Shown one piece after another: positions 1 to 51,089 of a stretch of DNA of 64,000 bases (the first letter of the stretch is position 1; each line of letters opens with the position of its first letter). Where the stretch lies: NCBI GenBank assembly GCA_048538215.1, contig JBLYPV010000001.1:547526-611525 (forward strand), written 5' to 3'. The notes under the pieces were generated by a model. That model was not told where the DNA came from and ran no database searches. It saw only the letters and a list, made by a program, of their open reading frames with translations. This stretch comes from Patescibacteria group bacterium (GTDB lineage Bacteria; Patescibacteriota; Minisyncoccia; Phycocordibacterales; GCA-2747955). Made by a program: the position numbers and the translations under genes.

Positions 1-364
1 TTTGGTACAGGTTGTGATGAGTATGTATTCGATAGAATAGTAAATGATCACTATTTAGGTAGTAAAACTATATGAATCATTCCATTCAAAAATCATATAA
101 GGGTCTGTACTAATTCACCTAAAAAAAGATTGTGATAAAAGAATATAAATCTTTAAAAAATTTGAAGTTAAAAAGATTATTATAAATATAAATTAGTTTA
201 TGATCTACTAGGTAAAACTACTTCTCTTAGAACTCTAAAACCTATATGTATAAGAAAATTTATTTTCAATATTTAAATTTACTGGAAGATAAAAATACTT
301 TTAGAAATGTTACTAATAAACTATTATGATAGAAATTTCAATTAACATATAAAGAGGATAACTT

Positions 365-1108
365 TTATTGAGAAATTTTAATGCCGATACGTGCAGTATG
401 ATCAATTCTACTTAATAAGATTTCATTACTCGTAAAATATTCGTCTACAGCCTTACGTGCACCTTCCCATGTTCCATAATCATCTATTATTAAAACTCCA
501 TTTTTACTTAAATTAGGATACAATACATCCAGTTCTTTTTTAGTTGATTCATACCAATCAGTATCCAGACGAAGTAAAGCAATTTTATCAGGAATATTTT
601 TACTCAATGTTATTTCCACTTTACCTTTCACATAGATAATTTTTTCTTGAGGAAAATTAGTAAGTTTCATATTATTCTTTACTTCTTCAATACTTGCATA
701 ACACCATTCATTATAATTTGCTTTTTTTGAATTACTCCATATTTCAAAAGTATTTTTAAAATTAGAACCAGCTATCACATCCACTTTTTTAGGTTCACTC
801 ATTCCTTCAAAAGTATCATATAAATATATTTTTCTATTTGTAATATTCTTATTTTCTAGAATATCAGCAATTAGCATCATATTTCCTCCTCTCCATACAC
901 CACATTCAACAAAATCACCAGGAATGTTATTATCAATAATATAATTAACAGCCTTATATAGAGCATAAAGACGTATTTTTGTTGTCATTGTATAAGTCTT
1001 ATACTTTTTATAAAGTTTTAAAAATTCTTTATCTATATCAATAACAGGATCTTTGTCTACTGGTCTAATAAGTTGCTTTAATCGACGTAGTAAATTTTTT
1101 ATATACAT
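365..1108 (-). CDS. TylF/MycF-family SAM-dependent (sugar) O-methyltransferase
   Basis: Motifs FVECGVWRGG and LRLDTDWYESTK are typical of the macrocin O-methyltransferase (TylF) family; AT-rich island. Confidence 0.6.
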   Translation of the reverse strand: MYIKNLLRRLKQLIRPVDKDPVIDIDKEFLKLYKKYKTYTMTTKIRLYALYKAVNYIIDNNIPGDFVECGVWRGGNMMLIADILENKNITNRKIYLYDTFEGMSEPKKVDVIAGSNFKNTFEIWSNSKKANYNEWCYASIEEVKNNMKLTNFPQEKIIYVKGKVEITLSKNIPDKIALLRLDTDWYESTKKELDVLYPNLSKNGVLIIDDYGTWEGARKAVDEYFTSNEILLSRIDHTARIGIKISQ

Positions 1109-1205
1109 AGATAGTGTATGAATTAATTATAGTTAGATTTCTATATAAAATTATTATAACTTATTCTTAGGATATTTAATAAATTAAAATAATTCCAATT
1201 TATAT

Positions 1206-1976
1206 TTAATGTATACTACTAAATATCATAGAAATTTTTTTTAATGTAGTTATAAGTTTTGAATTATTTTTAACTTCTACAATTTGTATACTATATTTAC
1301 TATTCAAATAGTCACAAATTTTCTTCTCTATAAGTTTAAATCTTTTGTTTGTCTCTATAAATTTTTGTTCAGTTAGATATTTCAAAATATGTGGTCGTCC
1401 TTTACTCCTAGATTCAGCCCTGTTTGTAGCAATAGAAATATCTGTGTCTAAAAAAATTATTGCTTTAGGTTTAGGTACTAATCTAAGATATTCCTTTTGT
1501 TTCAGACTAATATCTATTGATGAATTATGAATATAATAAAGAGAAAGAATTTTTTGAACTAGATATTCATCAATAAAAATTATTCGATTTTTATTGATAT
1601 CTTGATTTAAAAGTATGTGGTCAGTTATTGCGTCTTTAAATTTATCAATTAACCAAAATTTTTCAGCATTCTTTAGATCGCTTTCGTTAATTACATTTAA
1701 TATATGAGAAAGAAATAATTCTAACTCTTCCATATAACTACTACGAAGTAGTTGATCACGATAAAGATGGGTTATACGAGTGAGACGTAACTTAAAAGCG
1801 ATTTGTGGAGGAATATATCGTAATATTTTCGAAAAATGAACTTTAACCTCGGGACAATTTAATAAACCTCGAAATGCTGCAATTTCACCATTATCAAATA
1901 ATTTATTAAAAGTATAAATTTTTTTTACAAAGGTAGTTTTACCACTACCAGCTGGTCCTATAACTTCAATTATCAT
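1206..1976 (-). CDS. P-loop NTPase of unknown role (kinase/sulfotransferase-like) in glycan cluster
   Basis: N-terminal Walker A GPAGSGKTT; no other recognisable motif; sits in a carbohydrate-modification context. Confidence 0.4.
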   Translation of the reverse strand: MIIEVIGPAGSGKTTFVKKIYTFNKLFDNGEIAAFRGLLNCPEVKVHFSKILRYIPPQIAFKLRLTRITHLYRDQLLRSSYMEELELFLSHILNVINESDLKNAEKFWLIDKFKDAITDHILLNQDINKNRIIFIDEYLVQKILSLYYIHNSSIDISLKQKEYLRLVPKPKAIIFLDTDISIATNRAESRSKGRPHILKYLTEQKFIETNKRFKLIEKKICDYLNSKYSIQIVEVKNNSKLITTLKKISMIFSSIH

Positions 1977-1995
1977 ATATTTTGGTTATTCTACC

Positions 1996-2766
1996 ATGTT
2001 AAAGTTATTCTTCATGGGTGTTATATTATATAATATGCTTATGAAGAATCACAATATAAAAGAGTTTTATAATTACTTAGTTGATGGTGAGACATACAGA
2101 AAAGATTTTGAGTTTAATCGCTGGTTTATTCGGGCTCGCAACCGTGCTGAATATGCGATGACTTACATAGCTATAAAAGCTCATACAGCAAATCTTAAAT
2201 TTACAAACTGTCTAGAAGTAGGACCAGGTCCAGGTACATGGACTAGGCTTTTATATCGTACTAATCCAAAAGCAGAGTTTAATCTTGTAGATATTAGTGA
2301 AGCTATGAGGGAACAATTTTATTTGGAAATGCGAGATTTACCAAATGTAAAATATAGGGTACAGGATGTGATGGAATATAATGAGGATATTCAGTATGAT
2401 CTTTTCTTTTCTTCTCGTGCGGTAGAATACTTTGATGATAAGCCTGAGTTTTTTAAAAAGCTCTCAAAATTAGTTGTAAACAAAGGGAGAGGAGTAATGG
2501 TGACAAAAAATCCATATCACGGAGTACGAAAAGATAAAGGAGAAGCACACCAAGGGCAAATTCCTATGCCGAAAATGAAAGAGATGCTAGAAGATAATGG
2601 TTTTAGCAATGTGCGGTTTTACCCTGCGGTAATTCGTATTCCAATTATTAGTAGATTCACTTCAGAATTAGCTGAATATCTCTTTGAAAAGCGAATCAAT
2701 AGAGAAATAGATATACATAAAATTAATCGAATTGTAGAGAGTTATATTGTGACATTCACTAAATAA
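1996..2766 (+). CDS. class I SAM-dependent methyltransferase
   Basis: Motif I LEVGPGPGTWT followed by an acidic post-I residue (NLVDIS). Confidence 0.55.
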   Translation: MLKLFFMGVILYNMLMKNHNIKEFYNYLVDGETYRKDFEFNRWFIRARNRAEYAMTYIAIKAHTANLKFTNCLEVGPGPGTWTRLLYRTNPKAEFNLVDISEAMREQFYLEMRDLPNVKYRVQDVMEYNEDIQYDLFFSSRAVEYFDDKPEFFKKLSKLVVNKGRGVMVTKNPYHGVRKDKGEAHQGQIPMPKMKEMLEDNGFSNVRFYPAVIRIPIISRFTSELAEYLFEKRINREIDIHKINRIVESYIVTFTK

Positions 2767-2769
2767 GCT

Positions 2770-3825
2770 ATGCGTATATTCTATATTAGACGTGGTAGGC
2801 AAGATTTTTCTTTAATCAAACGAGTACACCATTCTTTTAATGATTTGTTGGAGTATCGAGATCAAGAAGGATTTTTTGATGCGTCTCTTGAGTATGCTGG
2901 AGAAGTAGAATATGTGTCATTGACGGATACTCAACGAATATTAGGTGAACAAAATTATGACTGGATTATTATCAATTGGAAACAACAAGGATTTAAAGAT
3001 TTAAATGATAGAGTGGAAGCTATTTTTAAATATTTAGGAAATACTAAAATAAATAAAGCCTTATTTATAAGTGCAGCCCGAGCTGATTATATGCTTCCAG
3101 ATTCCGTATTAAATAATTTTGATATTATATTTAAGCGAGAGCCGTATCGAGATAGAAATAAGTATAATATTTCGGATAAAAATAAAGCTAAGATTGTACC
3201 TACAATGATTCATTGTCCCTTTGTTCATTCTTCGAGAAATAATTTATTATCCAAAATGTTTCATTTAGTACGACCTATAATAAAGCCTTGCACAAAAGGA
3301 GAAGAAAAATATGAAGTAGGGTTCTCTGGAGCTGATGCGGCTGAACATTCCCTAAGAAGAGACGTATGGCAAAGAGTAGTAGATGAAGGATTTACAAAAA
3401 TAGGGGGGCTTCAACCCAATCCTTATACTAAAAGGCCTATACCAGAAAAATTAAAAGGCCCTAGATTGCGAGGTAAGGCCTATCGGGATTCTTTGTGCCA
3501 AGCGAAAATCAATCTAGCTCTTGATGGGATTGGAGAATATACTTTTAGACATCAAGAGCTTTTATATCTTGGTAAATTTATTTTGAGTAGCCCTACAATT
3601 CGTGATCTTGAATTGCCGATACCGCTTGAGGAAGGAAAGCACTATGTGGCCTTTGATGACCTGGATGATATGGTGGCTAAGATCCGCTACTACTTGGAGC
3701 ACGAAGAAGAGCGTAAGCAAATTGCACAGGCAGGCAAAGAATTGTTTGACACATACTACAACCCCGAAAAACATGGGCAAGAAATTAGAAAAGCCCTAAA
3801 ATCAAGTAACAAACTAGGATTTTAG
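2770..3825 (+). CDS. CgeB-like / GT1-like glycosyltransferase (DUF3880-type)
   Basis: C-terminal HYVAFDDLDDMVAKIRYYLEHEEERKQIAQAG resembles the GT1/CgeB C-terminal helix region. Confidence 0.4.
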   Translation: MRIFYIRRGRQDFSLIKRVHHSFNDLLEYRDQEGFFDASLEYAGEVEYVSLTDTQRILGEQNYDWIIINWKQQGFKDLNDRVEAIFKYLGNTKINKALFISAARADYMLPDSVLNNFDIIFKREPYRDRNKYNISDKNKAKIVPTMIHCPFVHSSRNNLLSKMFHLVRPIIKPCTKGEEKYEVGFSGADAAEHSLRRDVWQRVVDEGFTKIGGLQPNPYTKRPIPEKLKGPRLRGKAYRDSLCQAKINLALDGIGEYTFRHQELLYLGKFILSSPTIRDLELPIPLEEGKHYVAFDDLDDMVAKIRYYLEHEEERKQIAQAGKELFDTYYNPEKHGQEIRKALKSSNKLGF

Positions 3826-3844
3826 TAGAGGTAATCGTACGGAG

Positions 3845-5089
3845 CTACTTAATATGACGGAATATGCTTATTACAAATAAGCTGTTGACCATTTCTGATA
3901 TGAGTATGGCATAGACTGCCCCCCAAATTCCATAAATAGGTAAAAGAATATAGAGTAAGGTAAGCTTAAGCCCCACACCACTTATTTGGAAAATATATAA
4001 CCAGGTCGTTTTTTCGTGAGCTATAAGAGTTTGACCATAGACACTAAAAGGGAGTACTAGGATACTGAGAGCTAGTATTTGTGAAATGATGACCGACTCT
4101 GGGTATTGAGGGAAAATCAGACCGAATATTAAGGGAGCTAATATTATATATGATAAGACAATTGCTGATACAATACTAAAAAAGAGCCACACTTTATGAG
4201 GGAGGGTATATTGTAAGGAGGTAAAATCACGCTGAGACACCTTGGGGAGTACTAGTGATTGTACTACCCCTAGCATATTTTTTGTGTACTTGGTGGGCAT
4301 TTGAGCAATGGTGTAGGTGGCGACGGCTATAGCTCCAAGGTGATGATAGACAAGCACCTTATCAATATGTTGTGCGACTCGTCCTGCAAGTTGCATAATA
4401 CTGAGGTGCTTGCTAAAGAGAGTTTTACCCCTAAAGGTATCTATTCTTGGTGGATTAAAGTAGTATAGAGTAATAAAATAGCCAGTAGTTACTGCTATAA
4501 GGTGGCCAGCAAAATACGCAGTAATTAAGATAAGTGGATTTTGTGTAATAAGCACTGTTCCAATAAGAATAAAGGTAGGGATTATCATCCGAAAAACATT
4601 TATAAAGGCACTAAATTTATAAGCTTGCTTGCCAATAATAAATGGTCGATAGAGGTGAAAACTTTCAATGAAAGGGGAAAAAGTGCCCACAATTAGAAAA
4701 GCAATAGCTAAGGTGGAGTTGTCATTGATAAAGTAGTATAGAGCTATCGAAAGGCTTGCAAGTGTGATACCTATATTCCACTTGAGCTTAGTGCGTACTC
4801 CACTCCACAGAGCCCCATCATTCCCCCGGGCTGTTTCGGTTGTAACGGTAGTGGCTAATCCCGTGAGAGTAAAAGCTCCTAGGATAGTCGCGGTAGAGAT
4901 TATAAATTGATAGAGCCCAAGATTTTCTTTATCTATTAGATTAGCCAGTATGATAACAGTAAGTGCTCCTAAGCTTAATTCAATAAAAGATCCAAGGCTG
5001 AGCCAAAAGCCACCATGGGCAAGATAGCGGGTATCAGTGTGTGTATAGCGATTGAGCTTATCAAAAATGGTATCGATGTGGGTACGCAT
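3845..5089 (-). CDS. Wzx-like oligosaccharide flippase (MOP superfamily polysaccharide biosynthesis protein)
   Basis: About 12 predicted TM helices; N-terminus (RYTHTDTRYLAHGGFWLSLG...TETARG) is typical of Wzx/RfbX; paralogous to 6904-8142. Confidence 0.6.
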   Translation of the reverse strand: MRTHIDTIFDKLNRYTHTDTRYLAHGGFWLSLGSFIELSLGALTVIILANLIDKENLGLYQFIISTATILGAFTLTGLATTVTTETARGNDGALWSGVRTKLKWNIGITLASLSIALYYFINDNSTLAIAFLIVGTFSPFIESFHLYRPFIIGKQAYKFSAFINVFRMIIPTFILIGTVLITQNPLILITAYFAGHLIAVTTGYFITLYYFNPPRIDTFRGKTLFSKHLSIMQLAGRVAQHIDKVLVYHHLGAIAVATYTIAQMPTKYTKNMLGVVQSLVLPKVSQRDFTSLQYTLPHKVWLFFSIVSAIVLSYIILAPLIFGLIFPQYPESVIISQILALSILVLPFSVYGQTLIAHEKTTWLYIFQISGVGLKLTLLYILLPIYGIWGAVYAILISEMVNSLFVISIFRHIK

Positions 5090-5169
5090 ACTAGAATTGT
5101 AATGTTCTTATTATATCAGGTATACTAGCTATACTTCTAATAGATATAGGGTATTGTAAGATATACAAA

Positions 5170-6009
5170 ATGAAATCAATTAAGAAAATAGTAGAGCAAC
5201 CTCGCCCATTTAGATTTATAATAAGTTTCATATTGTTGCGACTAAATTTGTTTGTTCCAATACGGCTGATATTTTATAAAGGTAATGATTTTGTGATCAA
5301 GACTCGTCTGTATCCATCCTCTGCTACTCATCAAATTTTCACCGGTAGGAATAATCACAATTTTGACTTTGCTATTTTTCGTAAGTATATACAAAAGGAT
5401 AGTGTGGTATTTGATGTGGGAGCAAATATTGGCTTGTTTAGTATTTTTTTTGCCAAACTCGCTCCTCTTGGTAAGGTGTATGCTCTTGAGGCAACCGAAA
5501 GTAGCTTTATATATCTCATAAAGAATATTGCACAAAATACAATTAAAAATATTTTTCCTATATATGGGGCGGTATCTGATACTCGAGGGACAGTATCATT
5601 TTTTGAACATACTTATTCACACGAACAGGATTATATAGATATATCTGGCACAAAAGGAAAGGCAGTTTTGGCATTACGATTAGATGATGCCATGCAAATG
5701 ACGGGCGTTTCTCAAATAGATTTTCTCAAAATAGATATTGAGGGAGGGGAATTAATGGCATTAAAGTCACTAGGAGAAAGAATTAAAGATGTGGAAGTGA
5801 TTTATTTTGAATGCATGGAGAAACACTTAGAGAGATTTGGCTATACTCGAAATGAAATAGTCTTCTTTTTAGAAGATAATAATTTTGTTGTGCATATACC
5901 AACACTTGGGGCAGATGGAGATATTGCCATTGAGCCATATGCTGAAAATGGAGCTTTTGGCAGAGATATGCTGGCTTTCAATAAAAAATATATAAATAAA
6001 AATGATTGA
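5170..6009 (+). CDS. FkbM-family methyltransferase
   Basis: FDVGANIGLFSIFF motif and overall FkbM layout. Confidence 0.6.
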   Translation: MKSIKKIVEQPRPFRFIISFILLRLNLFVPIRLIFYKGNDFVIKTRLYPSSATHQIFTGRNNHNFDFAIFRKYIQKDSVVFDVGANIGLFSIFFAKLAPLGKVYALEATESSFIYLIKNIAQNTIKNIFPIYGAVSDTRGTVSFFEHTYSHEQDYIDISGTKGKAVLALRLDDAMQMTGVSQIDFLKIDIEGGELMALKSLGERIKDVEVIYFECMEKHLERFGYTRNEIVFFLEDNNFVVHIPTLGADGDIAIEPYAENGAFGRDMLAFNKKYINKND

Positions 6010-6907
6010 CGACAAACAAAAACAAAAAAATATTTTTCGTATTACCGGAGGCTTGGGCAATCAGATGTGCCAGTATGCTTTTATGTATCAAAGGAGTAGG
6101 AAGAAGGGCGTAGATATGAAATTAGATATTACTTCATACAAAATTGCTCGATTGATGGGGTATGTCAATCACCATGGCTATGAATTGGATCGCATATTTG
6201 GCATTAAGGAGCGAGCAAGTATAGGTGAAATTATCAAGGTAGGCGGCTTGCAATATTATCTGCAAGTTTTGGCTCGCAAGCTTGGACTGATACCAAAAGT
6301 GGTAGGTGGTAGTAAGGTATGTGTAGAAAATAATCCCAGAGATTCACATAAGTATATATCTTCGTACCAATCCAATAATTGCAGATATTTTCAAGGATTT
6401 TTTGAGCACTATAAATATTATTATGAATATAAGGATGAATTAGGAAAAATTTTTACTTTTCCTAATTATCAAGATGAAAGAAATATACAACTTTCCCAAG
6501 AGATAGAGGTGAGTAATTCAGTGGGTATACACTTACGGAGAAATGATAAGGGTGAGTTTTTCCATAATGGAGATGCTGGTGGGCTAGATTATTACAAACA
6601 TGCCATTGAATGGATACGCAGGCATACCGATAATCCTACACTATATATATTTTCTAATGATCCAGATTGGTGTAAAAAAATTTTAGAAATCAAAGACGCA
6701 CATTATATATCGCACAATCAGGGTGACGATGCCTTTCGGGATATGCAACTTTTATCAGAATGTAAGCACTTGATAGTAGCTAATAGCACTTTCTCTTTCT
6801 GGGCGGGATTGCTCAAGATGCAGAAGGCGGGCTATATTATATGCCCAAAAATTTGGAATAAAACGAGAGATGGCCACCCGGCTCCAAAAGAATGGGTGCG
6901 AATCTAA
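6002..6907 (+). CDS. GT11-family alpha-1,2-fucosyltransferase-like glycosyltransferase
   Basis: Signature GGLGNQMCQYAF near the N-terminus is the GT11 (FutC/WbsJ) motif. Confidence 0.6.
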   Translation: MIDDKQKQKNIFRITGGLGNQMCQYAFMYQRSRKKGVDMKLDITSYKIARLMGYVNHHGYELDRIFGIKERASIGEIIKVGGLQYYLQVLARKLGLIPKVVGGSKVCVENNPRDSHKYISSYQSNNCRYFQGFFEHYKYYYEYKDELGKIFTFPNYQDERNIQLSQEIEVSNSVGIHLRRNDKGEFFHNGDAGGLDYYKHAIEWIRRHTDNPTLYIFSNDPDWCKKILEIKDAHYISHNQGDDAFRDMQLLSECKHLIVANSTFSFWAGLLKMQKAGYIICPKIWNKTRDGHPAPKEWVRI

Positions 6908-8142
6908 GTGCTCTGGTGAGTGAAATATATCATCAGGAGGTATTCGAGCGACCAGGCGATGAGCAAGGCAAGGATAGCGCCCATGATGCCAAGGGCGGGG
7001 ATGAGGGTAAGAGTGAGGATGATTTGCAGAATAGGCACCGATAGTGAAACAGTGCGGATGGCTTGGCGCATCTTTTTGGCATTGAGGTAGCCACGAAGCA
7101 CCATTCGAGGCACGAGAAGCACCATAAGCATGGCAAGTATGGAGAAGTCCACCGCCTCAGAGTATGTAGGGAAGAAGAGAGCAAAGATGTAAGGAGCCAG
7201 GAGGGCATATAAGAGCCAGGTGGCGATTAATACCAGCTCAAATTTGAATATTTTACGGAAGAGAGCAGGCACATCGATTTCTTTTTGAGACATTCGAGGA
7301 GTGGCTACTTGATTAAAAATAGATCCAAGGCGATTGAATTCCATAGGAATCATCATCGCCACTGCATAGACCGCAGCTTCCACATCTCCCATAAAATACC
7401 ATATGGCCACTATGCCAATTTGCGTAGCAATGGTATTGGGAGTGGCATTATAAAGAGTGAGATACTTGCCATAGGCAATAGCATCACCATCTATATTTTG
7501 GGGGTAGCGATGATGCTTTTTGGTCCATAGATAGCCAGCGTATTGCATGGCAATAGTGGCAATCATATAGGCGGCTATTAGATAGGTAGCGGTGGGAGCA
7601 ATGAAAGCAGTGCCAATCATTACTATCATAAATATCACCCGGGCCGCTGCTTGAGTGAGTGCTGCCTGGTCAAACAATTGCTTGCCTTGGAGGTAAAAAA
7701 AGTAGCTAAAGTATACGCCGTATAGGGGCATAAAGGCGCCCACTATGGCAAATGAATAGCCCAAGCTTGTATTCGCCTGGTAAAAATAATAGGCGCTCAA
7801 AAGCCATGCAAAGAAGGTAGCAAGCAAGCCCCATTTGATGCGTACGCGCACTATAGTATCAAGCTGTCCTTCGTGTCCACGAGCAGTAGATTGCACAAGG
7901 GCTGTCTGCATTCCCGGCAGAGTGAAGATTGCCAGAATGAGTATGATGGCGATGATAAAGCGATATTCGCCGTATTCGCCCTTGTCTACCATATTCGCGA
8001 GTGCCACCATTACGATAAATGCAGAGAGTGAGGTAGCGAGCTGTCCGAGGAAGACCCAGCTAGAATTTTTGGCAAGGTAGACCATATCTGTGCGGGTATA
8101 GCGCTCACTCCAACGCAAGAGGCGTACAATAGATGCTTTCAT
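6904..8142 (-). CDS. Wzx-like flippase, second paralogue (higher GC)
   Basis: Same N-terminal pattern (RYTRTDMVYLAKNSSWVFLGQ...STARG) and multi-TM layout as 3845-5089, but host-like GC. Confidence 0.6.
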   Translation of the reverse strand: MKASIVRLLRWSERYTRTDMVYLAKNSSWVFLGQLATSLSAFIVMVALANMVDKGEYGEYRFIIAIILILAIFTLPGMQTALVQSTARGHEGQLDTIVRVRIKWGLLATFFAWLLSAYYFYQANTSLGYSFAIVGAFMPLYGVYFSYFFYLQGKQLFDQAALTQAAARVIFMIVMIGTAFIAPTATYLIAAYMIATIAMQYAGYLWTKKHHRYPQNIDGDAIAYGKYLTLYNATPNTIATQIGIVAIWYFMGDVEAAVYAVAMMIPMEFNRLGSIFNQVATPRMSQKEIDVPALFRKIFKFELVLIATWLLYALLAPYIFALFFPTYSEAVDFSILAMLMVLLVPRMVLRGYLNAKKMRQAIRTVSLSVPILQIILTLTLIPALGIMGAILALLIAWSLEYLLMIYFTHQST

Positions 8143-8632
8143 AGGAGTATTGTATCACTTTTAGTACTTTCTTAAGAAGAGGTGTAATGTGTAATTTTTG
8201 TATGGGACTAACACAGGAAGAAGAGAGGGGATCAAAAGGCAGTGGCGCGAGCAGTCCATAAGATTTTTAATTTGCTTCTTAAAAGGAAACAAAGCTTTAT
8301 TTTAGATGGCAGCTTGTCTAATCACAAGAATGCAAAGCAGAATATTGAGCGTGCCTTTAGCCGTGAATAGAAAAAACATCACTCAAGCTATCGATGGCTC
8401 TATCAAAAAACAAAAGGAGGTGATGCATAAGGCAGAAATGATTAAATAAAAAAATATCAGGGATGGTATTTTTTATTTAATGTAAGGGGGTGACAAATAA
8501 GGAGATAATCGTATCGCTGATAAAAGAAAAGTATGGGGGCGAGTGAATAGGGGGGAGCTACTGCCAGTAATGGGAATGGCGTTGATAACGCTGTGGCGCT
8601 CGTGTGCTCAAAGATGATATACTAGAATCACT

Positions 8633-10051
8633 ATGGCAATGCCTTCTCGCCGAATGATTTTGAGCCTCATTTTTATAGGATTCGTGCTATTTGTATTGGG
8701 GGTGCTTGTGTGGTATTTTAGCCCAGCTTTTTTTGGTCCGAGCACGCAAGATGGTGATAGCGGAAGGGGCGGAGGTATCAATCTATTTCCTTTTGGTGAC
8801 AGTGGGGGCGAAGGAGATCAGGGAGCAGGAGGGCAAGTGGTAGACCAGGGAGATACAGATACTCAAGATAAAGAGCAGGATCTTGGGCGTATGCCTCGCT
8901 TGCGGATGGTGAGCAAGGGGCCAGTGATTGCGGCTACGATGAGCCAAGCTTCATCGCATAGTGGTATCGTGGGGCCTTCGGCTACAAGCACTAATGATGC
9001 GGGGATAGAAAATAGTATTCGCTATGTAGAGCTGGGCACAGGGCATATATATGAGGCATCTACTTTTAATCGAGACATTACTCGGCTCTCCAATACCACT
9101 ATTCCTCGAATCAATGAAGCACAATTTGTGACACTAGATCGTATCTTGATGCGCTACACTGATGACTTGGGGAATTACAAGCTTTTCTCTGCTGAATTGG
9201 CTGATAACGCATCTCCAAGCGCCTCTACTCCCAAGCGCTTGCAGGGTATTTTCTTGCCCGATGGAGTGCGCTATATAGATGTGAGCCCTGAAGGAAAGCT
9301 GGTGTGGCTTCAGAATATGAGCAATGGTGTGCGTGTGGTGACCACCAATGCTCTCGGAGAAAATCAAAAACAAATATACTCCTCACCACTTTCTGAGTGG
9401 CGGATCGGCTGGTATGGATCAAATAATGAGGTGCTACTCCAGAGCACTCCTTCGTATGAGAGCTATGGAATGGCCTATACTTTAGATGCATCAAATGGAA
9501 GCTTGCGCCCTTATGGAGAAGCGCGCAAGGCACTAGGGGTGCTTCCTACCCCTGATCGTAAGCGAGCGCTCGTATCACTCAAGGCGGATGGACAGACACG
9601 ACTTTTTCTTTGGCGACAAGAGAGTAATGAGTATGTAGATCTTACCCCTCGTACTTTTGTCGAAAAATGTGTGTACGCCTCGGTACGAGATGAATTTTAT
9701 TGCGCAAGCCCGATAAGCCCTATAGCTCGTGCAGAGCCAGATTTGTGGTATCAAGGAGTGAGTAGCTATCGAGATGATATTTGGGTAATAGATGGACAAA
9801 CAGGGGCATCTGAGCTTGCACTAAGCCCTAGTGGACTCAGTGATGATCCAATCGATATTATTGATTTGGCCATTTCACCTGATGAGCAATTTTTGTACTT
9901 TCGAGATAAAGATACTCGCTCACTTTGGACATTCCAGATTGATTATATTCGCGGAAGTACTGAATCATCTAATTCGAGTGAGGTAGAATCGGCATCTGAG
10001 CCAGATTCTGGGCTAGACGCTGATACCGACGAAGAGCCATTCTTTGAATAG
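8633..10051 (+). CDS. membrane-anchored/secreted hypothetical protein (possible beta-propeller), acidic C-terminus
   Basis: N-terminal TM helix, Gly/Asp-rich linker, long beta-rich body, acidic tail. Confidence 0.4.
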   Translation: MAMPSRRMILSLIFIGFVLFVLGVLVWYFSPAFFGPSTQDGDSGRGGGINLFPFGDSGGEGDQGAGGQVVDQGDTDTQDKEQDLGRMPRLRMVSKGPVIAATMSQASSHSGIVGPSATSTNDAGIENSIRYVELGTGHIYEASTFNRDITRLSNTTIPRINEAQFVTLDRILMRYTDDLGNYKLFSAELADNASPSASTPKRLQGIFLPDGVRYIDVSPEGKLVWLQNMSNGVRVVTTNALGENQKQIYSSPLSEWRIGWYGSNNEVLLQSTPSYESYGMAYTLDASNGSLRPYGEARKALGVLPTPDRKRALVSLKADGQTRLFLWRQESNEYVDLTPRTFVEKCVYASVRDEFYCASPISPIARAEPDLWYQGVSSYRDDIWVIDGQTGASELALSPSGLSDDPIDIIDLAISPDEQFLYFRDKDTRSLWTFQIDYIRGSTESSNSSEVESASEPDSGLDADTDEEPFFE

Positions 10052-10300: not shown

Positions 10301-10600
10301 GAGCCGCGTCCAACGGTTCTTATTGAGCGTAAGCGACAATTAGAAACCGTGGGATCGTGTCCTAGAGATGCACAAAACTAAGAAAACACTGTGTGAGCAG
10401 TGTTTTCTGTTTGGTTTGTAGTGTTTGCAGGGAATCGGGGGCAAGTTGCTAAGCTCATTTCCTCACTATCGTTTGTCATTTGCTAAGCACTTCCTCCCCG
10501 GGCTCGATCGTGCTTTTGCACATATCTGCGCCTTTTGATTATCCACGCAAGCAAAGCAGTTTGCTTGCTCCTCCCACAAAAATACTTCAGTACTTTTTTG

Positions 10601-31704: not shown

Positions 31705-31911
31705 AAATATATATCACAATATATTGACAATTTGTCAAAATTAAGGTAATCTTTTGTTAATGGTACTTTGATACGCAATCTTAATTTTCCGGATTTTCTT
31801 CCGTGAAATGCAGCTTTTTGTTGCCAAAGGCAATAAAAAGCTGCATTTCACCCGAAGGGCGTGCAGTATTCTTATATACACAAGCCCTTCGGGGCAACGA
31901 AAGGGATCAGG

Positions 31912-32850
31912 ATGGCACTTTTTGGGAAGAAGAAGGGCAACAGCCCTAGCGATGACCTTCGTAAGGAGGTCATCTCGGCTGCCGCCAAGGCGGCAGCCGA
32001 TCAAGCAGCCAAAGAGGCTGCGACGAAATTCGACCCCGAGCAGCTGAGCGCTGCTCGGGTGGGCGATGCGCTCGATCGCCGGGCTCAGACCCGTCATGAG
32101 GAGAGCCGGGGGCTCTTGTACCTCGGGGTATTCCTAGCAGGGATGACCCTTGTCCTCGTTTCCCTCTGGGGCTTCTCTGGCGGTTCGTCCGCTGGAGTGA
32201 ATGCCCTCAACAGGGGGATGAGCGCTGGCTTCGAGCGGGTCTATGCCCGGCTCGATGCCATCGATGCGCGCCTTTTGGCGCTCGAGAGCAAGCCTTGTCG
32301 CAGGGCCTGTGCTCTCGAAATTGCTCCCAAGCGGGCGGTATCACTACCGCTCGACCGGAGCCAGTGCTACCTGGCCAATGGCCACGTGATCCGCACTGGC
32401 TCACGAGGCTCAATCGGCCTGGCCGATCGCTGGCGCCCAGCACGCCAATTTGGTGCTGTGCGCTTGCACGCCTGCCTCTTTCCCGAGCGGATTGAGGCAA
32501 GGCGGGAGCAGGCCCTGCAACGGACTCACAGAGTCTACTGCAGGGAAGGGGCATACCTCGGTCGCAAGGCCGACGGGAGCCTGACCTGCTTCCGACCCCG
32601 ATCGCAACCCTGGCGGTCGAGCCAGCACTCGTGGATCGATGGTGGGCAGGGATCTGGCCCGCCTTCGGGCACTGGTGCTGACCGTGGTGAAAGCCATGGT
32701 GGTACCCCGGCTGGCCCTTCGGATCCAGGTGCTGACCGTGGTGAAAGCCACGGTGGTACCCCGGCAGATCCGGGCGCCACTGGCATTGGTGGCAATGATG
32801 CCGGCGGGGGTGGCCGTGGCGGGGAAGGTCATGGTGCCGGACCCGCATAA
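31912..32850 (+). CDS. hypothetical protein in ~66% GC foreign-looking insert (single TM, Gly-rich tail with 13-aa tandem repeat)
   Basis: ATG at 31912 preceded by aagggatcagg; GADRGESHGGTPA repeated twice; antisense ORFs of similar length exist, so frame assignment is tentative. Confidence 0.3.
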   Translation: MALFGKKKGNSPSDDLRKEVISAAAKAAADQAAKEAATKFDPEQLSAARVGDALDRRAQTRHEESRGLLYLGVFLAGMTLVLVSLWGFSGGSSAGVNALNRGMSAGFERVYARLDAIDARLLALESKPCRRACALEIAPKRAVSLPLDRSQCYLANGHVIRTGSRGSIGLADRWRPARQFGAVRLHACLFPERIEARREQALQRTHRVYCREGAYLGRKADGSLTCFRPRSQPWRSSQHSWIDGGQGSGPPSGTGADRGESHGGTPAGPSDPGADRGESHGGTPADPGATGIGGNDAGGGGRGGEGHGAGPA

Positions 32851-32985
32851 GATTGCGTTGGGGCGGGAATCATCTCGCCCCAGCACACCTTTTGCACTTG
32901 CAGAAGGTGTTTTTAATTATATAAAGTATGCAAGGTGGATAAATCAGTGGATAAAATGTGGTTTATAAAAACTAAAACACATATA

Positions 32986-37121: not shown

Positions 37122-38018
37122 TTAAGTATTGCCGTGATATTTACTGTGCACCTCTTTGAGAAATTTATCTGAAAGCTTGGTGTATACCTGGGTGGTATTG
37201 ATACTAGCGTGCCCTAGGAGCATCTGTACCGAGCGAATATCAGCACCATTGTGGAGCAGGTCGGTAGCAAAATAGTGGCGTAGATCATGTGGAGTCACCC
37301 TGCGCATAATCCCTGCTTCTCGTGCGCGCTTGTTGAGAATCCGCTGGACGGCTCGTGGGTAGATAGCACTTCCTGTTTTCATCACAAAAAGTGCAGGCGA
37401 GAGAATAGGGAGATCTGCTTGGTGTCGAAGATCCAGATAGGCGCGCGTGGCTCTGCGGGCAGCTTGGGAGATAAACACGAGGCGTAATTTCTCGCCTTTT
37501 CCACGGATGGTTAGCTCATCGCGAGACAAATCGATGTCTTCTTTGAGGCTACAAAGCTCGGACACGCGAAGCCCTGTGGAGTAAAGGAATTCGAGAATTG
37601 CTTTGTCGCGAATGTCTTCAAGATCGCTACCGCTTGGGGCGCTCATCAGGCGATTAAATTCATCACGGGTGATTACATCAAGCTCTCGCTGGGCTGTTTG
37701 GGCGAGCTCGATTTTGCTAGCTTCGAGCGTGCTTATATCCCGCTTGGCAAGGTATTTTAAAAAAGAGCGAAGGGCGATGAGGTATTTGTTTTGTGTGGTT
37801 TTTTTCATTGTTCCTTCACGAGTAGGGCTTCTATTGAGCGCGATGCGAAAGGATCGGACAGATTCGGCGGTGATATCTTGAACGCGAGTGATCTGTGCGT
37901 ATTCAAAATACGCTTTGATGTAGCGTTCGTACATAGTAATAGTATGCACACTGCGCCCCTTTTCAATTTCGAGGTACTCAAGGAATTCACCAAGGTAGTG
38001 AGTAGTATTCTGCGACAT
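37122..38018 (-). CDS. xerC: XerC/XerD-family tyrosine recombinase
   Basis: C-terminal HDLRHYFATDLLHNGADIRSVQMLLGHASINTTQVYT (R..HxxR..Y); start set at MSQNTTHYL. Confidence 0.8.
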   Translation of the reverse strand: MSQNTTHYLGEFLEYLEIEKGRSVHTITMYERYIKAYFEYAQITRVQDITAESVRSFRIALNRSPTREGTMKKTTQNKYLIALRSFLKYLAKRDISTLEASKIELAQTAQRELDVITRDEFNRLMSAPSGSDLEDIRDKAILEFLYSTGLRVSELCSLKEDIDLSRDELTIRGKGEKLRLVFISQAARRATRAYLDLRHQADLPILSPALFVMKTGSAIYPRAVQRILNKRAREAGIMRRVTPHDLRHYFATDLLHNGADIRSVQMLLGHASINTTQVYTKLSDKFLKEVHSKYHGNT

Positions 38019-38135
38019 AATTGTATTGTAATCTAAAAATTGGAAATTAAAAATCAAAATGGATTGAGTGGGAGTGTTTTAATGACATTGCTTATTTTTT
38101 AATGACATTGCTTATATAGGGGACATATAGGGCAG

Positions 38136-50444: not shown

Positions 50445-51089
50445 ATGTCTTTGCGTTTTGGCAAACAACATATTGGAGGCATATACCACGTGTTTAACCG
50501 TGGTACTGACAAGCGCATTATTTTTACTGATAAACCGGATAAAGATAGATTTCTTTTATTGATGAAATTAATGAATAGTAAGGAGAATATTGGAAGCATG
50601 AGAGATTTTTTGGAAGGTAATCGATTGCAAAAAGAAGAAGAGCTAGAATCGAGCCCTCTAGTACGGATCATTGCTTTTTCATTGCAAGGCAATCATTACC
50701 ATCTATTGCTCGAACAAATTGAAGAAAATGGGGTGCAATTATTTATGCATAAATTAGGAATGGCTTATGCAAAATATTTTAACAGTAGACAGCAGAGAAC
50801 GGGCACTTTGTATCAAGGTAGATATAAGTATGTTGTTGCAGAAAGTCAGCATAGTGTAATGCGTCTTATCGCTTATATCAATCGCAATGAGGAAATGCAC
50901 AAAAGGAAGCGAGAAGAAGATTACTCAAGTAGAAAATGGTATGTCAGCAAAGAAGAGTACCCAATGGGATTGGAGCTGTATAAGGATCTGTTTGGGGACT
51001 ATGAGAAGCAAGAGGAGGATATTATTTTGCAATATAAACGACAACGCGATATTGATAGCAAGCACGATAGAGAGATATTCCTTGAATGA
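50445..51089 (+). CDS. REP-associated tyrosine transposase (RAYT; IS200/IS605 TnpA-like Y1 HUH transposase)
   Basis: HUH motif NHYHLLLE, catalytic Tyr region GTLYQGRYKYVV, GIYHVFNRG N-terminus; flanked on both sides by identical REP doublets. Confidence 0.7.
   Translation: MSLRFGKQHIGGIYHVFNRGTDKRIIFTDKPDKDRFLLLMKLMNSKENIGSMRDFLEGNRLQKEEELESSPLVRIIAFSLQGNHYHLLLEQIEENGVQLFMHKLGMAYAKYFNSRQQRTGTLYQGRYKYVVAESQHSVMRLIAYINRNEEMHKRKREEDYSSRKWYVSKEEYPMGLELYKDLFGDYEKQEEDIILQYKRQRDIDSKHDREIFLE

Follow-up and report, generated by a model that had tools for sequence, protein, structure and literature searches.

A variable, low-GC candidate surface-glycan locus in a Patescibacterium and a methyltransferase-kinase module that recurs within the phylum

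Patescibacteria are ultra-small, mostly episymbiotic bacteria whose attachment to the host is presumably mediated by the cell surface, and to our knowledge the glycans of this surface are almost unexplored. A literature search for fucosyltransferases, flippases, or glycan islands in Patescibacteria or the candidate phyla radiation (CPR) returned nothing specific. Here, we describe an AT-rich cluster of glycan-related genes that occupies the first ~6.9 kb of a 64,000-nucleotide stretch of contig JBLYPV010000001.1 (assembly GCA_048538215.1, positions 547,526 to 611,525), referred to below as the window. The host is, judging from RecA, a Patescibacterium of the class Paceibacteria (Parcubacteria): the protein is 80-89% identical to metagenomic sequences and 70-75% identical to those of Campbell-, Zambryski-, Kaiser-, and Paceibacteria. 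Homologous loci from other genomes and metagenomes are cited by number (L001, L003, and so on).

Genes and composition of the locus

The features at the left end of the window are listed in Table 1. Every open reading frame (ORF) of the low-GC region is intact, with a length that agrees with its homologues. A preliminary description, made from the letters alone, had read these genes as a glycan decoration island. Its gene calls all pass Pfam or NCBIfam profile searches (the P-loop protein with sub-threshold dTMP-kinase matches only), and the profiles bear out three Pfam methyltransferase families, a GT11 enzyme, and two flippases of the MOP family. Scores exceed the cut-offs for the TylF protein (154.8 bits vs 23, PF05711), the FkbM protein (62.7 vs 22.7 for PF05050 and 92.4 vs 37.7 for TIGR01444), the GT11 protein (106.8 vs 23.9, PF01531), and the two flippases (56.2 and 58.2 vs 28.2, PF01943). 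The flippases are polytopic, as a crude hydropathy scan shows numerous hydrophobic segments in them, and their homologues carry the JGI name "O-antigen/teichoic acid export membrane protein." A promoter and terminator scan gave a yield no richer than that from shuffled sequence.

Table 1. Features of the low-GC region and its right flank, in window coordinates
Feature	Coordinates	Strand	Evidence
Truncated gene (3' part only, left part outside the window), probably for a fourth methyltransferase, of Methyltransf_11 type	1..75	+	Short C-terminal match
Non-coding AT-rich spacer between convergent genes	76..364		GC 0.21-0.22, no ORF
TylF-family sugar O-methyltransferase, 247 aa	365..1108	-	Pfam TylF 3.4e-45
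P-loop small-molecule kinase (predicted), rare family, 256 aa, co-transcribed with TylF	1206..1976	-	Sub-threshold dTMP-kinase matches only
Class I SAM methyltransferase, 256 aa, divergent from kinase	1996..2766	+	Pfam Methyltransf_25/11/12/31/23
Glyco_trans_1_2 (CgeB-like) glycosyltransferase, 351 aa	2770..3825	+	PF13524 6.4e-15, residues 214-338
Wzx1, MOP/Polysacc_synt flippase, 414 aa	3845..5089	-	PF01943 4.7e-15
FkbM-family methyltransferase, 279 aa, first gene of FkbM-GT11 operon	5170..6009	+	PF05050 6.2e-17; TIGR01444 3.5e-26
GT11 alpha-1,2-fucosyltransferase-like enzyme, 301 aa	6002..6907	+	PF01531 1.6e-30
Wzx2, resident flippase, 412 aa, conserved edge of variable region	6904..8142	-	PF01943 and PF13440
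Intergenic right flank, with possible degraded zeta-toxin fragment	8143..8632
Flanking gene, 472-aa secreted or membrane-anchored protein	8633..10051	+	No Pfam match; N-terminal hydrophobic segment

The preliminary description had also proposed that the gene set continues past the window start. In frame 1, bases 1-75 encode the peptide FGTGCDEYVFDRIVNDHYLGSKTI followed by a stop (with FGTGCDEYVF...), which resembles the C-termini FGSGCDEFVFKKML (with its stop; L010 11471-12298, Methyltransf_11 by Pfam) and FGSGCDEYLF (L011). By this similarity, which at a length of 10-14 aa is only suggestive, a fourth methyltransferase spans the left edge of the window, and the region appears to continue past it. 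No remnant of the GT4 gene found at this place in L010 was detected in the spacer at 76-364.

The GC content is 0.326 in bases 1-6907 and 0.443 in bases 6908-64000. In successive 1-kb segments, the first 7 kb have values of 0.25, 0.24, 0.33, 0.36, 0.39, 0.34, and 0.38, which lie 1.7-7.7 standard deviations (SD) below the remaining segments (mean 0.439, SD 0.026), and nearly all segments past the first 7 kb fall at 0.39-0.50. The seven genes of the region also differ in GC from the 45 other genes of the window (Mann-Whitney p = 1.5e-5). The composition is atypical relative to the host, as that of a mobile island would be. The drop to about 30% from the window start to ~6.9 kb given in the preliminary description holds as a drop, but not as a uniform level, since there are two strata, of 0.247 (bases 1-2000) and 0.358 (bases 2001-6907), with abrupt steps at ~1980 and ~6900. 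The TylF and P-loop genes have a GC of 0.25-0.27 and a third-codon-position GC (GC3) of about 0.13 (TylF 0.14), and the five genes beyond the P-loop gene, up to base 6907, a GC of 0.33-0.39 and a GC3 of 0.25-0.35. GC at the first and second codon positions (GC1 and GC2) is reduced as well; therefore, the amino-acid composition of the encoded proteins is shifted. Wzx2 has, as the preliminary description said, a host-like composition (GC 0.473, GC3 0.52).

The window holds a second compositional anomaly, larger than that of the low-GC region: a 1-kb block at 31880-32880 with sharp edges and 63-66% GC in a 44% GC genome. Its ORF (31861-32850, plus strand, 329 aa) has no Pfam match and a Gly/Arg/Ala-rich C-terminus with repeated GADRGESHGGTPA. 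Alternative minus-strand ORFs are present in the block, and it has no DNA match in a plasmid collection.

Homologous loci and the origin of the low-GC region

Loci found with the kinase as a probe come from Saccharibacteria (L009), Kaiserbacteria (L010 and L011), and metagenomes (L008 and L023-L025). L010 (Candidatus Kaiserbacteria RIFOXYD1_FULL_42_15, MFMT01000004.1) and L011 (HKST-UBA34) match window positions 365-6009 in gene order and relative orientation: FkbM gene(s), Wzx, Glyco_trans_1_2 <- class I methyltransferase, kinase -> TylF. These six families are shared at 34-65% identity. Against L010, the identity is 57% for TylF, 34% for the kinase, 63% for the class I methyltransferase, 58% for the Glyco_trans_1_2 glycosyltransferase (50% against both L011 and L024), and 48% for Wzx1 (42% in L011 and 40% in L001, each time at the equivalent position). 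TylF is 52-69% identical to the copies in L001, L008, L009, L010, and L011. The module is only partial in L009, L008, L023, L024, and L025, and L001 has homologues of TylF (60%), Wzx1, and GT11 (43%). FkbM genes adjoin the module flippase in L010, L011, and L024 too. A metagenome scan with an alignment of the Glyco_trans_1_2 glycosyltransferase returned three loci only, which equal L010 in every module-gene match and probably belong to the same population.

The two Kaiserbacteria loci differ from the window: GT11 and a second flippase are both absent from the 16.7 kb covered, two FkbM genes run in the opposite orientation, and an additional GT4 gene separates TylF from Methyltransf_11 (in L010, TylF is followed by GT4, Methyltransf_11, and an AsnB-like amidotransferase). 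In both, Methyltransf_11 and AsnB-like genes come after the shared genes, and the kinase-TylF end is the richest in AT. Both loci are unannotated and uncharacterised and add no functional knowledge. AsnB-like glutamine amidotransferases recur beside the TylF/kinase module (L009 5754-6788; L001 1-1412; L010 12302-14185; L024 8761-9261), a hint that the product may contain an amidated sugar of the uronamide type.

The two flippases belong to different units. Wzx1 and Wzx2 share only 32% identity over their full length, and the "duplicated Wzx" of the preliminary description therefore does not hold in the sense of a recent duplication: the two are, by their sequences, old paralogues, Wzx1 being part of the conserved module and Wzx2 of the resident locus. 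Orthologues of Wzx2 occur in other Patescibacteria at 46-66% identity and edge a glycan cluster in all five distinct contexts retrieved, with a different content in each: GT4s and Bac_transf in L004/L005; a Caps_synth glycosyltransferase, GT4s, epimerases, BacA, and Bac_transf in L006; Methyltransf_24, Sulfotransfer_2, GT4, and GT2 in L007; gmd, fcl, Sulfotransfer_2, and GT10 in L020; and an unrelated low-GC gene in L022. The 472-aa protein is 47% identical to the product of L006 368-1798, which is encoded on the corresponding side of the flippase orthologue there. Because of this synteny, we regard Wzx2 and the 472-aa gene as a conserved flank of the locus and the low-GC region as its swappable interior. 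Conserved flanking genes with differing content between relatives, the pattern of O-antigen- and capsule-type loci, are thus found here, and the variable locus of the preliminary description stands, as the genes beside the Wzx2 orthologues of L004, L006, L007, L020, and L022 show.

Two of the closer relatives (L020 204-5290; L007 5198-5965) have the Wzx2 orthologue followed by gmd-fcl, Sulfotransfer_2, and a GT10 fucosyltransferase, a combination that would point to glycans of this patescibacterial lineage being both sulfated and fucosylated.

The retention of module order and orientation from Paceibacteria to Saccharibacteria could be taken to mean that the locus is ancestral and vertically inherited, its low GC being a gene-specific mutational or selective bias of weakly expressed, K/N/I-rich enzymes. 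The low GC1 and GC2, with their shifted amino-acid composition, would fit such a bias, and L010 shows the same internal stratification: at 8001-9600, its kinase-TylF pair has a GC of 0.27-0.33 vs 0.39-0.41 for its methyltransferase, glycosyltransferase, and Wzx genes, which mirrors the step at ~1980 in the window. We nevertheless consider this explanation unlikely, for the following reasons: (i) the distribution is patchy, since the five relatives with Wzx2 orthologues (L004, L006, L007, L020, and L022) have no module; (ii) identity of the class I methyltransferase is flat at 60-70% whether the bearer is from Kaiserbacteria, Saccharibacteria, or of unknown affiliation, while RecA is only 70-75% identical to named Paceibacteria; and (iii) the homologues in L001 and L008 have 42-48% GC, so that the proteins themselves do not dictate a low GC.

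A second alternative is that an AT-rich genomic island from an outside donor was recently inserted beside a host flippase. The compositional break of 12-20 GC points with its sharp steps, the two GC strata that suggest two histories, and the presence of other genes at the equivalent place in relatives would all agree with this, as would the tRNA-Arg and tRNA-Gly genes that lie 3.2-3.7 kb past the ~6.9 kb GC boundary, with Wzx2 and the 472-aa gene in between. However, TylF, the kinase, the class I methyltransferase, the glycosyltransferase, and Wzx1 all have their closest homologues, and their synteny, in Patescibacteria. In addition, the kinase-TylF end is the AT-richest in L010 too, and GC falls downstream of the Wzx2 orthologue in L020 and L022 as well; low GC therefore recurs in these genes and is no proof of a recent outside acquisition. 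Within the window, which does not reach the left boundary of the locus, bases 1-10 kb hold no integrase, transposase, or conjugation genes, no integrase or transposase lies within 30 kb of the region in the window, no direct-repeat pair brackets it, phage and plasmid collections gave no match, and scans of viral contigs gave no relatives. A foreign island is, on this evidence, improbable. Of the horizontally acquired cassette in the preliminary description, the atypical GC and the content that varies between relatives stand, but the synteny of the module within Patescibacteria, the conserved flank, and the lack of a mobility signature argue against it. Instead, the turnover looks like recombination or exchange among Patescibacteria with no capture by a mobile element; exchange within the phylum is indicated because the close homologues and the synteny all fall inside it.

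Several neighbouring features of the window may be recorded here. The other genes are typical CPR housekeeping genes, such as MiaA, UvrD, KsgA, ClpP, RecA, FtsK, LigA, GatA, and PilD, together with a VirD4-like ATPase. This last is a 943-aa VirD4/TrwB-like coupling ATPase (15906-18737; DUF87, TrwB_AAD_bind, TraG-D_C) that stands amid the housekeeping genes; a similar gene adjoins the glycan locus in L003. A XerC/D-type tyrosine recombinase (37122-38057) and an IS200-like Y1 transposase (50445-51089) are far from the low-GC region and unlinked to it. A perfect 77-bp tandem duplication (10663-10739 / 10740-10816) shares its first 9 nt with the 5' end of tRNA-Gly(TCC) (10600-10671, minus strand) and may have arisen through an error of assembly or through recombination. 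The intergenic region on the right of Wzx2 (8143-8632) contains a 52-aa open fragment (...SFILDGSLSNHKNAKQNIERAF..., frame +1) whose weak match to Zeta_toxin (E value of 0.0021) does not reach the cut-off; it might be the remains of a toxin gene.

Since the source is a metagenome-assembled genome, the AT-rich segment might also have been misjoined to a Patescibacteria contig during assembly or binning. The GC step at ~6900 is abrupt and falls on a gene junction, and an exact look-up of window proteins (TylF and GT11) in indexed assemblies gave no record. Both ORFs at this junction are, however, intact and of full length, with the stops of GT11 and Wzx2 overlapping by 4 bp (CTAA). The same convergent pair of GT11 and flippase genes with overlapping stops is present in L003, where gmd/fcl-like genes follow. 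Furthermore, the genes of the region have their best relatives in Patescibacteria, and the orthologous loci also drop in GC past the flippase. We regard a chimera as very improbable.

The kinase-methyltransferase pair and the other enzymes

The P-loop protein belongs to a rare family, with 92 matches at E<=1e-3 in a search of 1.84 billion cluster representatives. In an alignment-based structure model, it has the fold of P-loop nucleoside monophosphate (NMP) and deoxynucleoside (dNK) kinases, with a Walker A motif, an acidic residue after strand 3, LID arginines, and a matching overall fold (a single-sequence AlphaFold model with a pLDDT of 34.7 was not used). Walker A residues G7, G12, and K13 are invariant, as is R186, and the acidic pair D136-E137 and R190 are near-invariant. 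The protein differs from dTMP, deoxynucleoside, and adenylate kinases in its low identity (11-16%, with all Pfam matches under the curated cut-offs), in a ~90-residue helical insertion between the P-loop helix and strand 3, and in its context, which within Patescibacteria consists exclusively of glycan clusters. We predict it to be an ATP-dependent small-molecule kinase of the dTMP/dNK-kinase fold.

The kinase keeps constant company. An orthologue of the class I methyltransferase (60-70% identity) is present in 8 of 8 kinase-bearing loci of Patescibacteria type and is directly adjacent and divergent in seven of them (the loci were found with an 8-sequence kinase alignment, a 30-sequence alignment being too diverse). 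Because alignments of methyltransferase homologues begin at residues 10-16, the true start of this protein is probably M14 or M16. The Glyco_trans_1_2 glycosyltransferase encoded downstream has a weak profile match only in the Protein Data Bank (PDB), to POGLUT2 (2e-4).

The TylF protein matches the antibiotic sugar O-methyltransferases NovP (2.4e-24), MycF, and CalS11 in the PDB. Its acidic motifs LRLDTDWYEST and IIDDYG align with LRMDGDLYEST and IVDDY of NovP; the conserved LDxDxYEST and DDY motifs are, we take it, metal-binding. The family is the same (E 3e-45), but NovP, MycF, and CalS11 tailor antibiotic deoxysugars, whereas the TylF protein of the window sits in a flippase-dependent glycan cluster. 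The FkbM protein has a weak RfbT match, and its gene overlaps that of GT11 by 8 bp. The names TylF and FkbM derive from macrolide pathways, and the antibiotic enzymes are the closest solved structures to TylF, which raises the possibility that these genes tailor a secondary metabolite and not a cell-surface glycan. This is hardly credible: the 64 kb hold no polyketide synthase (PKS), nonribosomal peptide synthetase (NRPS), or aglycone gene, the genes are accompanied by two flippases of the MOP family and by a GT11, and Bac_transf, BacA, Wzy_C, and many GT4s occur in the syntenic loci.

The GT11 protein has 1781 homologues at E<=1e-5, and NCBI lists an identical protein under the name alpha-1,2-fucosyltransferase. 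The match to the PF01531 family, whose bacterial members are annotated in Bacteroidota such as Pedobacter and Lepagella, extends over the full length, and all four motif regions (GGLGNQ, HxRRxD, SND..WC, and NSTFS.W) are present, with the H/R/R/D residues kept: H177, R179, and D182 are invariant and R180 near-invariant in a 12-sequence alignment. The protein is, however, only 31-43% identical to the bulk of the family and has no GDP-fucose genes nearby. At the variable position of GGLGNQMCQY (C23), 83 of the 91 motif-bearing sequences among the 120 best homologues have F and seven have L, and C is found in the window protein only, which confirms the replacement of the usual F given in the preliminary description. 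Where the family has HxRRGDY, the protein reads HLRRNDK, a variant that otherwise occurs in one metagenomic fragment only (66% identical). A scan of genome contigs with GT11 found no relative.

Proposed pathway and comparison with known systems

We consider it probable, from gene content and synteny, that bases 1 to ~6.9 kb form the interior, variable and low in GC, of a surface-glycan locus that depends on flippases and whose content is turned over within Patescibacteria. Three layers would make up this locus: (i) the conserved flank, formed by the 472-aa protein and the resident flippase Wzx2; (ii) the FkbM-GT11 operon that abuts Wzx2; and (iii) the phylum-wide module of Wzx1, Glyco_trans_1_2 <- class I methyltransferase, and kinase -> TylF, probably with a further methyltransferase beyond the window. 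Substrates, reaction order, carrier lipid, surface display, and biological role are what we infer from these families. On the cytoplasmic side of the membrane, an oligosaccharide would be built up on a polyprenyl-phosphate carrier, with the Glyco_trans_1_2 and GT11 enzymes and transferases encoded outside the window adding sugars, that added by GT11 being an alpha-1,2-linked fucose or a related 6-deoxyhexose. Up to four S-adenosylmethionine (SAM)-dependent methyltransferases (TylF, FkbM, class I, and the fourth) would methylate the glycan, and the P-loop kinase would phosphorylate a sugar or sugar precursor in concert with the neighbouring class I methyltransferase. The product would then be flipped by Wzx1 and/or Wzx2. 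Wzx proteins prefer their cognate units (PMC3715488), and thus two divergent flippases suggest two lipid-linked substrates or a recently combined locus.

Several points weigh against this proposal. The 64 kb contain no initiating phosphoglycosyltransferase, polymerase, ligase, or nucleotide-sugar pathway, and no GDP-L-fucose genes (gmd/fcl or salvage) are found among the ORFs of at least 120 aa, several shorter ORFs at 52-63 kb being unscanned. The heavily O-methylated, fucosylated glycan of the preliminary description is plausible but lacks a GDP-fucose pathway, an initiating transferase, and a polymerase in the window. GT11 deviates from the family consensus in two motifs (C23 and HLRRNDK). 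Distant homologues of the kinase (Rhodobacteraceae and Mesorhizobium, 21-25% identity) adjoin pterin-binding and DHDPS genes and have no glycan genes beside them; these proteobacterial proteins were not used for inference. The left boundary of the locus lies beyond the window start, and vertical descent with loss is not separable from transfer within the phylum without trees. Related loci carry parts not seen in the window, namely Wzy_C in L024, Bac_transf in L004 and L006, and adjoining gmd/fcl-like genes in L003 and L020.

Variable, low-GC loci for surface glycans are an ordinary kind; the present locus documents one in Patescibacteria and is, as a genomic phenomenon, expected. It offers a concrete, testable handle on the surface chemistry of CPR bacteria. 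Its most interesting part is the methyltransferase-kinase(-TylF) module: a methylation/kinase/flippase module of five to six genes circulates within the phylum, and an uncharacterised kinase family is found in a glycan cluster with one particular methyltransferase in all the Patescibacteria-type loci examined.

The nearest known parallel to this pair is WbdD of Escherichia coli O9a, a bifunctional kinase-methyltransferase chain terminator that phosphorylates and then methylates the O-polysaccharide terminus (PMC3482155). In both cases, a kinase is coupled with a class I SAM methyltransferase inside a polysaccharide locus. However, WbdD combines in one protein the methyltransferase and a kinase of the eukaryotic protein-kinase fold, whereas the kinase of the window has the P-loop NMP/dNK-kinase fold and is encoded by a separate, divergent gene; moreover, WbdD acts in an ABC-transporter pathway, whereas the exporters here are of the Wzx type. 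A PDB search with the class I methyltransferase gave no WbdD match at E<=0.01. Kinase fold and methyltransferase search thus argue against a WbdD homologue, and the analogy is functional only. By this analogy, the methyltransferase and the rare kinase, usually accompanied by TylF, may tentatively be proposed as an undescribed, Patescibacteria-specific glycan modification system, for instance one that places a phosphate, a methyl-phosphate, or some other phospho-methyl decoration on the surface glycan in a WbdD-analogous but non-homologous way, although we hold this to be rather doubtful. If true, such a system could control glycan termination or recognition in the contact between episymbiont and host.

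As a whole, the locus is best compared with the galactose-initiated O-antigen clusters of Salmonella enterica, in which low GC also occurs in several strata (28-37% vs 51-52% for the genome; PMC3715488). Shared with these are the clustering of flippase, glycosyltransferases, and sugar-modifying enzymes, the hypervariable content beside conserved flanks, and the segmented low GC (25-36% vs 44% here). Unlike O-antigen and capsule clusters, the window comes from a Patescibacterium, shows no initiating transferase, Wzy, or nucleotide-sugar genes, places two divergent flippases side by side, and is unusually dense in methyltransferases (three to four in 7 kb). Patescibacteria would thus share the evolutionary logic of O-antigen and capsule loci, in which a conserved flank borders a low-GC, mosaic, swappable interior.

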